IMG/VR virus record: IMGVR_UViG_2547132488_000019
Coordinates: 1 to 12,996 of that record
DNA: 12,996 nt
From: a virus
Lineage: Duplodnaviria > Heunggongvirae > Uroviricota > Caudoviricetes
Direction: 5' to 3' (one strand)
Shown here: positions 1,789-2,845 of the stretch, one piece after another
How the letters are laid out: every line of letters begins with the position of its first letter
Position numbering within the stretch: position 1 is the stretch's first letter
The notes under the pieces: generated by a model
Seen by the model: only the letters and a program-made list of their open reading frames with translations
Database searches by the model: none
Told to the model about the DNA's origin: nothing
Translations under genes and position numbers: made by a program

Positions 1789-2793
1789 ATGCAAGATACA
1801 GACGTTTACGTATACATAGGCGATGTTCACCGCTCTGGTCATCACGACATCACCAAAGCGATTAAAGAAAGAAAAACTAACCATGGTTTACAAAAAAATG
1901 TTCTTTTTTGCGTCGCTACCTATGGCGGTGATCCCAGCGCAGGATATAGAATTGGCCGCGCTTTGCAACACAACTATGAACACATCACCGTTCTAGTTGT
2001 TGGCCCTTGCAAAAGTGCTGGAACCTTGATGGCTGTCGCCGCTCATAAGCTCGTGATTGGTGATATGGGTGAGCTTGGTCCTCTAGACATCCAACTTAAG
2101 AAAAATGATGAGATCGGCGAATTGAGCTCGGGCCTTGTTATCGCAACGGCGATTGATGAAATAAAAGAGTGCGCTATTTCGACCTTTAGATCATACGTAC
2201 TTGATATAAAGTACAGAAACCAAATTAGCACGAAGATGTCTGCAGATATTGCTGCTAAGCTTACTGAAGCAATCATATCGCCGATGGCCTCACAGATAGA
2301 CCCCATCAAACTCGGGGAGCATCAACGAGCAATGAACATAGCGCTTTCCTATGGGGAGCGTTTGAATAGTCACTCGAAAAATCTTAAGGAAAGCTCCTTA
2401 GGCAAGTTGATCGCTGGATATCCAGCCCATGGTTTTGTGATAGACCGTAAAGAGGCGAGGGAACTATTCAACCATGTTGAGAGTCCTACAGACTTTGCAG
2501 CCAACCTGTACGAAGTTCTTGGTGAGATGATTTCGTCAGGCGAAATCTCTATCTTCGACAAACCGGTGATTAAAGATTTAACTCCTAAAAAACAATATGA
2601 AACAACTAACGCAGAGGAAGATTCCCATGACAACAGCAGAATTCAGGAAGGAGATGAAATCTCTGACCAAAATTCAGGAAGAGCAGAACCGCCAAGGGAT
2701 GAACCTGTCCAGGGAAGCGATGGAAAACATGCGGAAATTGAAGAAGAGGCTGGAACCTTACCAGCAGAGCAACCAGATGAAGGCACTCAGTGA
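1789..2793 (+). CDS. ClpP/crotonase-fold serine-peptidase-like protein (S49/SDH-like) with acidic disordered C-terminal tail
   Basis: 334 aa; N-terminal ...NVLFCVATYGGDPSAGYRIGRAL...ITVLVVGPCKSAGTLMAVAAHK... lines up with the ClpP/SppA motifs (SPGG...AG...GxAAS), giving Ser76 as candidate nucleophile and Lys104/105 as candidate base; last ~70 aa are Asp/Glu-rich. SD AGGGA 5 nt upstream. Family call is from motif memory, not from a search. Confidence 0.55.
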   Translation: MQDTDVYVYIGDVHRSGHHDITKAIKERKTNHGLQKNVLFCVATYGGDPSAGYRIGRALQHNYEHITVLVVGPCKSAGTLMAVAAHKLVIGDMGELGPLDIQLKKNDEIGELSSGLVIATAIDEIKECAISTFRSYVLDIKYRNQISTKMSADIAAKLTEAIISPMASQIDPIKLGEHQRAMNIALSYGERLNSHSKNLKESSLGKLIAGYPAHGFVIDRKEARELFNHVESPTDFAANLYEVLGEMISSGEISIFDKPVIKDLTPKKQYETTNAEEDSHDNSRIQEGDEISDQNSGRAEPPRDEPVQGSDGKHAEIEEEAGTLPAEQPDEGTQ

Positions 2794-2814
2794 ATATTGT
2801 AGTTTCTGATTGAG

Positions 2815-2845
2815 GACCTCGGCTACTACGCCGGGGTCTCTTTTT
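2815..2845 (+). terminator. Rho-independent terminator of the peptidase-like gene
   Basis: GACCTCGGC-tactac-GCCGGGGTC (9-bp GC-rich stem, one G-U pair) followed by TCTCTTTTT, 22 bp after the stop codon. Confidence 0.65.

Follow-up and report, generated by a model that had tools for sequence, protein, structure and literature searches.

The DNA analysed here, called the window, is the 12,996-nucleotide (nt) stretch at positions 1 to 12,996 of IMG/VR virus record IMGVR_UViG_2547132488_000019 (Caudoviricetes). It carries, in order, a tyrosine integrase gene, a dinI homologue, a gene for a 334-residue peptidase-like protein, approximately 470 nt of gene debris, and a minus-strand Mu-type tail module. 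A first-pass annotation, made from the sequence alone, had described the peptidase gene as a stand-alone open reading frame (ORF) with its own Shine-Dalgarno (SD) sequence and a strong terminator. The reading frame and its signals are as described, and the terminator hairpin (2814-2839) has a folding energy of -19.5 kcal/mol (z = -5.7), with 0 of 200 shuffled sequences folding as well. The gene does not, however, stand alone, because the DNA encoding its C-terminal tail also contains, in the +1 frame, a conserved overlapping ORF of 60 amino acids, here called orfX. Judging by its sequence, the segment from 1779 to 2845 holds two overlapping genes in a compact cassette with one shared terminator (Table 1).

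A structure search confirmed the peptidase fold that had been proposed for the 334-residue protein, which is of the ClpP/crotonase alpha-beta type, and the closest viral structure matches were giant-virus proteins labeled "serine dehydrogenase proteinases." In the AlphaFold model, the predicted local distance difference test (pLDDT) score of the core is mostly above 80, except in the loop spanning residues 104 to 116. Profile searches pointed to the SDH-type serine peptidases, as evidenced by matches to Pfam PF01972 (SDH_protease; E = 3e-6, with 27.0 bits falling under the 31.3 cut-off) and NCBIfam NF047768 (35.9 bits, under the curated cut-off of 250), and by a full-length match to PHROG 21683, a family of unknown function. 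Weak profile matches to ClpP-related head-maturation proteases were also found (NF045542, E = 1e-6; PHROG 1684, E = 3e-6). A sequence search of the PDB with the single protein gave no match, and the same search with the family profile gave a marginal match to ClpP. Moreover, most homologues carry a precomputed PF01972 match, and RefSeq names near-identical Escherichia coli proteins "SDH family Clp-fold serine proteinase," with older records using "SppA protein." The family that the first-pass annotation could not place was already named; the structural guess of that annotation was right, but neither the fold nor the family name is new. No signal peptide, membrane segment, or membrane anchor was found in the peptidase sequence or model.

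Taken together, the peptidase is a soluble ClpP-fold serine peptidase-like protein that belongs to a divergent branch of the SDH type. It shares with PF01972 and NF047768 the fold and the best profile matches, and the chain order of its invariant S76, D100, and H214, discussed below, may be a further common feature. It differs from them in scoring under both curated cut-offs, in having a PHROG of its own, and in carrying an unconserved tail of approximately 70 residues together with an overlapping small ORF. The family is large, numbering 1376 clusters at 50% identity when the threshold is E <= 1e-30 and 5590 when it is E <= 1e-3. It is also sparse: a pattern scan of 185,579 species genomes located relatives in 397 contig stretches, from Proteobacteria, Chlorobi, Chloroflexi, Planctomycetes, Acidobacteria, Cyanobacteria, the candidate phyla radiation, and others. 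The folded core of the window protein is under strong purifying selection. For instance, a comparison with an allele 98.6% identical to it showed 11 synonymous differences and 1 nonsynonymous difference, giving a ratio of nonsynonymous to synonymous rates (dN/dS) of 0.025, while a comparison with an 84% identical homologue gave 24, 13, and 140 differences at the first, second, and third codon positions, respectively, with third positions dominating. In the literature searched, a described biological role was not found for any member of the SDH-type family.

Predictions about catalysis come from an alignment of 244 distinct family sequences that are 34 to 100% identical. The motifs quoted in the first-pass annotation, namely, ATYGGDPSAGYRIG at residues 43 to 56, GPCKSAGTLMAVAAHK with Ser76, and LKKND with K104 and K105, were all found at the residues given for them. 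Ser76 is aligned with the active-site serine of ClpP by both HMMER and hhalign, with CKSAG opposite AASMG, and it is conserved in 243 of the 244 sequences, which bears out its proposed place as the nucleophile; the hhalign comparison used a ClpP sequence entered by hand, and its alignment covers residues 4 to 81 only. The adjacent C74 and K75 are conserved in 244 and 243 sequences, respectively. Like ClpP (S14), the window protein has its predicted nucleophilic serine at a strand-helix elbow. Unlike ClpP, it has no histidine approximately 25 residues past the serine. Similarity to ClpP ends past residue ~90, and the position of the missing histidine is taken by the invariant motif LDIQ (D100 in 243 sequences, Q102 in 244), in which D100 sits 24 residues past Ser76, the spacing of the ClpP catalytic histidine.

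A Ser76-Lys104/105 dyad, as the first-pass annotation proposed, is unlikely to be the catalytic arrangement. K104 is variable (80 of 244), K105 (231 of 244) lies 29 residues past Ser76 within a loop with a pLDDT below 50, and H214 (244), D100, and D219 (244) are invariant or nearly so; for these reasons, the general base is best sought in a residue other than lysine. The SppA and NfeD 1510-N peptidases (S49-type, Ser-Lys) have a conserved lysine approximately 40 to 52 residues past the serine, for which K126 is the only candidate here (61 of 244), and the window protein also lacks the membrane anchor of those enzymes. The sole histidine between residues 77 and 213, H178, is present in 155 of the 244 sequences. 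A predicted Ser-His-Asp arrangement with the chain order Ser...Asp...His (S76, D100, H214) fits the invariant residues, and we take this order to be what the SDH label denotes. The loop at residues 104 to 116 (2098-2136) is the core's sole low-confidence stretch, yet its residues are highly conserved (K105; D107 in 212 of 244, E108 in 239, and S114 in 244). Judging from the model, it probably becomes ordered only in an oligomer or upon binding of a substrate or partner.

The tail that follows the core had been described as acidic and disordered, and this holds for its composition and model. The approximately 73 residues past position 262 include 21 Asp or Glu against 7 Lys or Arg and are only 15% hydrophobic, and pLDDT is below 50 for residues 270 to 334. 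Essentially all homologues have a tail (median, 66 amino acids), which is net acidic in 69% of them. What the description missed is that the tail sequence itself shows no sign of conservation, while the +1 frame of the same DNA does. In the comparison in which the core has 24, 13, and 140 differences by codon position, the tail has 18, 11, and 14, so its third positions are approximately 2.5 times less variable than those of the core, and the dN/dS of the tail in frame 0 is 0.7 to 1.1.

The predicted product of orfX, MTTAEFRKEMKSLTKIQEEQNRQGMNLSREAMENMRKLKKRLEPYQQSNQMKALSEYCSF, would be read from the final 55 codons of the peptidase gene and beyond; its stop lies 16 nt past the peptidase stop and 5 nt ahead of the terminator stem. 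Among 87 ungapped Enterobacterales-clade pairs compared over the last 62 codons, amino acid identity is 70.3% in the +1 frame, with lower values in frame 0 (58.6%) and frame +2 (58.3%). Translations in the +1 frame are better conserved than those in frame 0 in 83 of these 87 pairs and in 31 of 31 pairs from other clades (Proteus/Morganella/Rahnella, Marinobacter-like, Nitrosomonas, and others); in neither set are the pairs phylogenetically independent. Each of 11 in-register pairs was also set against a random-mutation null, with its observed numbers of transitions and transversions placed at random; the +1 translation surpassed this null every time (P < 0.0005 to 0.049), and the other two frames stayed at it. 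For example, between the window and locus L089, identity is 0.69 in the +1 frame (null, 0.55) and 0.56 in frame 0 (null, 0.56); the comparisons of the window with L089 and with L090 used a gapped alignment. Moreover, an ATG-started +1 ORF of 54 to 67 amino acids is present in 19 of 20 clade representatives, with 90 amino acids in the remaining one, and a purine-rich, SD-like run lies ~5 to 17 nt from the ATG in most of the 20, being weak or absent in a few.

The openness of the +1 frame was rejected as evidence in itself, as composition largely accounts for it. With the acidic, hydrophobic-poor composition of the tail, 60% of synonymous reshuffles in the window leave this frame open, and therefore the argument for orfX rests on substitution patterns. 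The converse does not hold: frame 0 is open in just 7% of synonymous reshuffles of orfX. Because of this and because tails are near-universal and so often acidic, the peptidase tail seems to be retained for its length and charge and not for its sequence. As judged by substitution patterns, the tail region is dual-coding, with orfX under purifying selection and the tail amino acids changing at the rate expected of random mutation. A single-sequence AlphaFold 2 model of the orfX product has three helices, with a pLDDT of 80, and neither Pfam nor PHROG has a credible match for it. The only database record identical to the 60-residue product is a hypothetical E. coli protein (P0268).

Table 1. Features of the peptidase-orfX cassette and its surroundings in the window
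Feature	Coordinates	Strand	Remarks
Peptidase gene	1789..2793	+	334 aa plus stop; SDH-type ClpP-fold serine peptidase-like protein
Folded core, codons 1-262	1789..2574	+	Strong purifying selection
Cys74-Lys75-Ser76 codons	2008..2016	+	Ser76 (2014-2016) is the predicted nucleophile
Asp100 codon, GELGPLDIQ motif (invariant)	2086..2088	+	Candidate triad acid; role inferred
His214 codon, YPxHGFVIDR motif (invariant)	2428..2430	+	Candidate general base
Peptidase tail-coding region, codons 263-334	2575..2790	+	Acidic, predicted disordered; amino acid selection not detectable
Peptidase-gene Shine-Dalgarno AGGGA	1779..1783	+	5 nt to ATG; read from sequence
SD-like GAGGAAG of orfX	2614..2620	+	6 nt to orfX ATG; read from sequence
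orfX, overlapping small ORF	2627..2809	+	+1 frame of peptidase gene; 60 aa plus stop
Intrinsic terminator	2814..2845	+	Hairpin 2814-2839 then CTTTTT; 10-bp stem, 7 GC pairs
dinI 3' end and terminator hairpin, left copy of duplicated joint	1503..1590	+	Direct repeats D1 and D4
dinI 3' end and terminator, right copy	3066..3200	+	83% identical to left copy; other edge of inserted segment
Tyrosine integrase	112-1209		Window gene preceding dinI
DinI homologue	1271-1519		Own terminator hairpin; LexA box upstream at 1238-1257

The distribution of the gene in E. coli supports its earlier classification as accessory cargo. It is present in 49 of 5426 complete E. coli genomes, always as a single chromosomal copy. 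The window-type allele (98 to 100% identical) is found in 21 genomes, in the dinI-gene arrangement at a prophage end, and resides in two unrelated prophages, a Mu-tailed one adjoining prfC and a lambda-tailed one adjoining dusA. In these 21 genomes, the intact peptidase gene lies beside only a repressor pseudogene or debris. A second allele, with approximately 60% amino acid identity, is found in 28 genomes, in lambdoid prophages; there it occupies the cI-N interval, in the orientation of cI and 115 nt beyond it, with a terminator and then a PL-like promoter after the gene. No terminator-like site was found between cI and the second-allele gene. A search with the second-allele cro-cI-gene-flank segment revealed that in other genomes the same slot holds rexA-rexB, PIN-domain, P63C-domain, DUF1828, NYN, or hypothetical genes or insertion sequence elements, in prophages that have an identical Cro (WP_000437875.1), cro-cI DNA that is ~92% identical, and the same distal flank. 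Because the same cro-cI segment holds other cargo elsewhere, the peptidase gene is best regarded as exchangeable rexAB-slot cargo and not as a part of the switch. Lambdoid prophages that exemplify the slot comparison are L085, L169, L170, and L171, and the same-Cro prophages as a whole are a ready-made catalogue of candidate lysogen-expressed functions in the cI-N slot.

A similar residence is seen across viral genomes. Relatives are encoded on 109 IMG/VR contigs, of which 57 were informative in having at least 3 kb upstream. In 38 of these 57 contigs, the gene immediately upstream on the same strand encodes a CI-like repressor with helix-turn-helix and S24 domains, and in 46 of the 57 a repressor-type gene, whether CI or an XRE/ImmA pair, is no more than four genes away; these counts derive from crude ORF calling (longest ORFs, greedy) on a redundant IMG/VR set. 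The repressor linkage persists down to 35 to 45% identity. PHROG annotation of 150 neighbouring genes returned mainly repressors, regulators, and CII-like and N-like proteins, with integrases also among the neighbours, and no head or packaging family was among the 25 most frequent PHROGs. When the neighbours in 165 loci were clustered all against all, none proved to be a universally conserved separate gene. In phages, then, the gene has a strong preference for the repressor-proximal, lysogen-transcribed region. Two isolated phages carry it, a Klebsiella phage, in which it lies beside an XRE/ImmA pair, and a Burkholderia P2-like phage, in which it lies beside int. In the former (ST13-OXA48phi12.4; L003), an annotated 71-residue ORF at 6799-7014 overlaps the start of the peptidase homologue and is divergent from the XRE/ImmA pair. 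A similar ORF of 52 to 71 amino acids is found on related IMG/VR contigs, and the 71-residue product may be a local regulator.

We propose, with a probability of roughly 0.45, that the cassette encodes a peptidase and a small partner protein that are expressed in the lysogen, with phage exclusion as the leading guess for their function. In this model, the cassette would be transcribed in the lysogen from the promoter of the upstream gene, which would be PRM where it lies behind cI, while the window copy might depend on read-through from the LexA-controlled dinI promoter or on a weak promoter of its own. The orfX product would pair with the peptidase as an inhibitor or restraint, an adaptor, or a substrate, and the acidic tail would be kept for its length and charge. 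Upon superinfection or another trigger, the peptidase might cleave a phage or host protein and thereby exclude the incoming phage, an action like that of RexAB, BstA, or Lit. The overlap of orfX with the peptidase gene provides a small partner gene tightly coupled to a putative effector gene, as in toxin-antitoxin-like pairs. It is genomic position that suggests a defence role: the literature describes the cI-N region as a mosaic hotspot, home to the abortive-infection systems rexAB and bstA, which are coexpressed with the repressor (10.1101/2020.07.13.199331), and this precedent is the reason for favouring exclusion. A more specific version, in which the 60-residue product restrains or directs a ClpP-fold protease that is unleashed on attack, making the cassette a new abortive-infection or exclusion system that is coexpressed with the repressor and widespread (~1,400 clusters, many phyla), is doubtful at this stage.

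Several observations weigh against the proposed cassette and its role in exclusion. A search of PADLOC-DB v2.0.0 with the peptidase returned 0 defence families at E <= 1, and a full-text literature search found no publication on the peptidase family. In the species-level genome sample, a repressor-type gene is nearby in only 18 of 78 loci, and known defence genes near these loci are few, consisting of two type I restriction-modification loci. The window copy follows dinI and a terminator-like hairpin, not a repressor, and no sigma-70-like promoter was found between that terminator and the peptidase gene. As for orfX, an ATG-initiated +1 ORF of at least 35 codons is present in 91.5% of loci against 65% expected, which is only a moderate excess, an iterated hidden Markov model (HMM) search for cross-clade similarity recruited nothing outside the Enterobacterales clade, and the non-independence of the pairs in the frame comparisons applies here as well.

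Other functions for the gene have to be weighed alongside exclusion. One is that it serves the lysis-lysogeny or SOS switch, by clearing CI fragments or tuning RecA-dependent induction, without acting against phages. Its contexts, which are S24-type CI repressors, XRE/ImmA pairs, and, in the window, a LexA-boxed dinI, are all responsive to DNA damage, and there are precedents for both activities: removal of cleaved CI in Staphylococcus aureus is reported to require the ClpX protease (10.1101/2022.09.18.507959), and Hex of phage 434, a product of the PRM transcript, is reported to prevent RecA from mediating cleavage of the repressor (PMC3564112). Nevertheless, we consider this unlikely, as the same Cro and ~92% identical cro-cI region function with rexAB, PIN, P63C, or other cargo instead, the gene is found with two repressor types that differ in mechanism, and in variable orientations, and it is still under purifying selection in the 21 E. 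coli genomes where only a repressor pseudogene or debris is left beside it. Quite unlikely is a role in lysogenic conversion, in which the protein would act on host physiology (stress proteolysis, the envelope, or virulence) and have no part in phage-phage conflict. Such a role would suit a lysogen-expressed type of cargo, and the species-level loci are heterogeneous, with a few integrases and transposases and many loci among ordinary metabolic genes; bstA, too, was initially tied to virulence phenotypes (10.1101/2020.07.13.199331). It fits poorly with the strong preference for the immunity region in phages and with the absence of a signal peptide, a membrane segment, and a conserved host-gene partner. 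The reading of the gene as a prohead (head-maturation) protease that has degenerated or been displaced, which the first-pass annotation had already thought improbable, is hardly credible: apart from the weak NF045542 and PHROG 1684 matches, the context contradicts it, since the neighbours are repressors, regulators, N-like antiterminators, and integrases, the 25 leading neighbour PHROGs include no head or packaging family, and the gene, which is under strong purifying selection, is also found outside prophages.

The coding arrangement of the tail has alternatives of its own. Were this a single-gene peptidase with a functional acidic, disordered tail, the +1 ORF would be a compositional by-product, and the reshuffling results (a +1 frame open in 60% of window reshuffles, and an ATG ORF in 65% of family-wide ones) and the 69% of homologues with acidic tails would be expected. 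Substitutions in the tail avoid frame-0 third positions, however, and only the +1 translation beats the random-mutation null, which makes this reading decidedly improbable. Programmed +1 frameshifting, by which some peptidase molecules would acquire a helical C-terminal domain with no separate small protein being made, would also account for the conservation of a +1 frame overlapping the peptidase gene at its 3' end and for both frames being kept open. It is very improbable, because in most of the clades examined the conserved part begins at an ATG preceded by an SD-like run and has a uniform length of 54 to 67 amino acids, and because no slippery or stall motif was noticed, albeit in the absence of a search aimed at one. 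Frameshifting of the +1 type is also rare in bacteria.

The proposed exclusion cassette has counterparts among known systems in position and organization. Homologues of ~60% identity occupy the same cI-N slot as RexAB, BTP1 BstA, and 434 Hex, on the repressor strand and followed by a terminator, PL, and N; however, the peptidase is unrelated to these proteins in sequence and fold, its predicted chemistry is proteolysis, and the window copy is not behind a repressor. With respect to gene organization, the counterpart is the Rz/Rz1 spanin pair of lambdoid phages, in which one gene is embedded in the +1 frame of another. orfX, likewise, is a small phage gene that overlaps a larger gene of its module in the +1 frame. 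Unlike Rz1, it has no lipobox or signal sequence, it overlaps only the 3' end of the larger gene and runs past its stop, and the proteins and their functions are unrelated. The analogy drawn in the first-pass annotation to Lit of prophage e14, another prophage-borne, int-proximal peptidase, extends to position and enzyme class only, as Lit is a zinc metallopeptidase that causes abortive infection and has an unrelated fold.

Within the literature searched, two aspects of this locus appear new, namely, the family's habitual residence in phage immunity regions, including direct replacement of rexAB, and the conserved gene concealed in the +1 frame of the DNA that encodes the tail. The cI-N slot has been the source of RexAB and BstA, and an uncharacterised peptidase family in that position is a single-locus candidate for a proteolytic lysogen function. 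If the cassette does encode an effector paired with an inhibitor or adaptor, then it would represent a new effector class for prophage-borne immunity. Also, orfX and the tail offer a clean bacterial example of overprinting, in which one frame keeps its sequence and the other only its length and charge. As gene callers almost never report orfX, which has a single record, knockout and expression constructs based on existing annotation would unknowingly alter two proteins.

The DNA surrounding the cassette bears signs of rearrangement. As the first-pass annotation had observed, this region is lower in G+C content, at 0.42 to 0.46 over positions 1 to 3000 against 0.55 to 0.60 in the tail genes, and no conservation between alleles was seen in the DNA 5' of the peptidase SD (1779). 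A near-consensus LexA box, TACTGTATACAAACACAGTA, lies directly 3' of the dinI promoter-like site (TTGACA at 1206, with the second hexamer ending at 1235), and therefore the prophage-end dinI is expected to be SOS induced. The dinI terminator hairpin has a folding energy of -14.2 kcal/mol and is followed by UUUUU. The two copies of the dinI 3' end and terminator, 1.6 kb apart, bracket the peptidase cassette and the debris, and the duplication looks like a recombination scar, such as might form between two dinI-bearing prophages. No intact gene is present at 2846-3345, which contains only fragments of a tail-fibre invertible segment, namely, a 12-residue C-terminal remnant of a serine invertase on the minus strand (~3010-3045) and, on the plus strand, a C-terminal fragment of a tail-fibre-assembly gene (3262-3345). 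A repressor remnant was sought in 2794-3400 by HMM search, which was negative and returned just these invertase and tail-fibre-assembly fragments. In related E. coli prophages, longer LexA-family and invertase pseudogenes are still present at the equivalent spot.

Finally, the tail module holds a second atypical gene. An ORF of 173 amino acids on the minus strand (9747-10268) has a G+C content of ~0.35 in a module of ~0.58, lies between the tape-measure and DNA-circularisation genes, and encodes a protein that begins with a signal-peptide-like N-terminus (MKKMFILLLAVGLPLNSFA). No Pfam family matches it, and its PHROG match, 5586, is a family of unknown function. From these sequence features, it looks like a second moron, possibly encoding a secreted or periplasmic protein for lysogenic conversion or exclusion.

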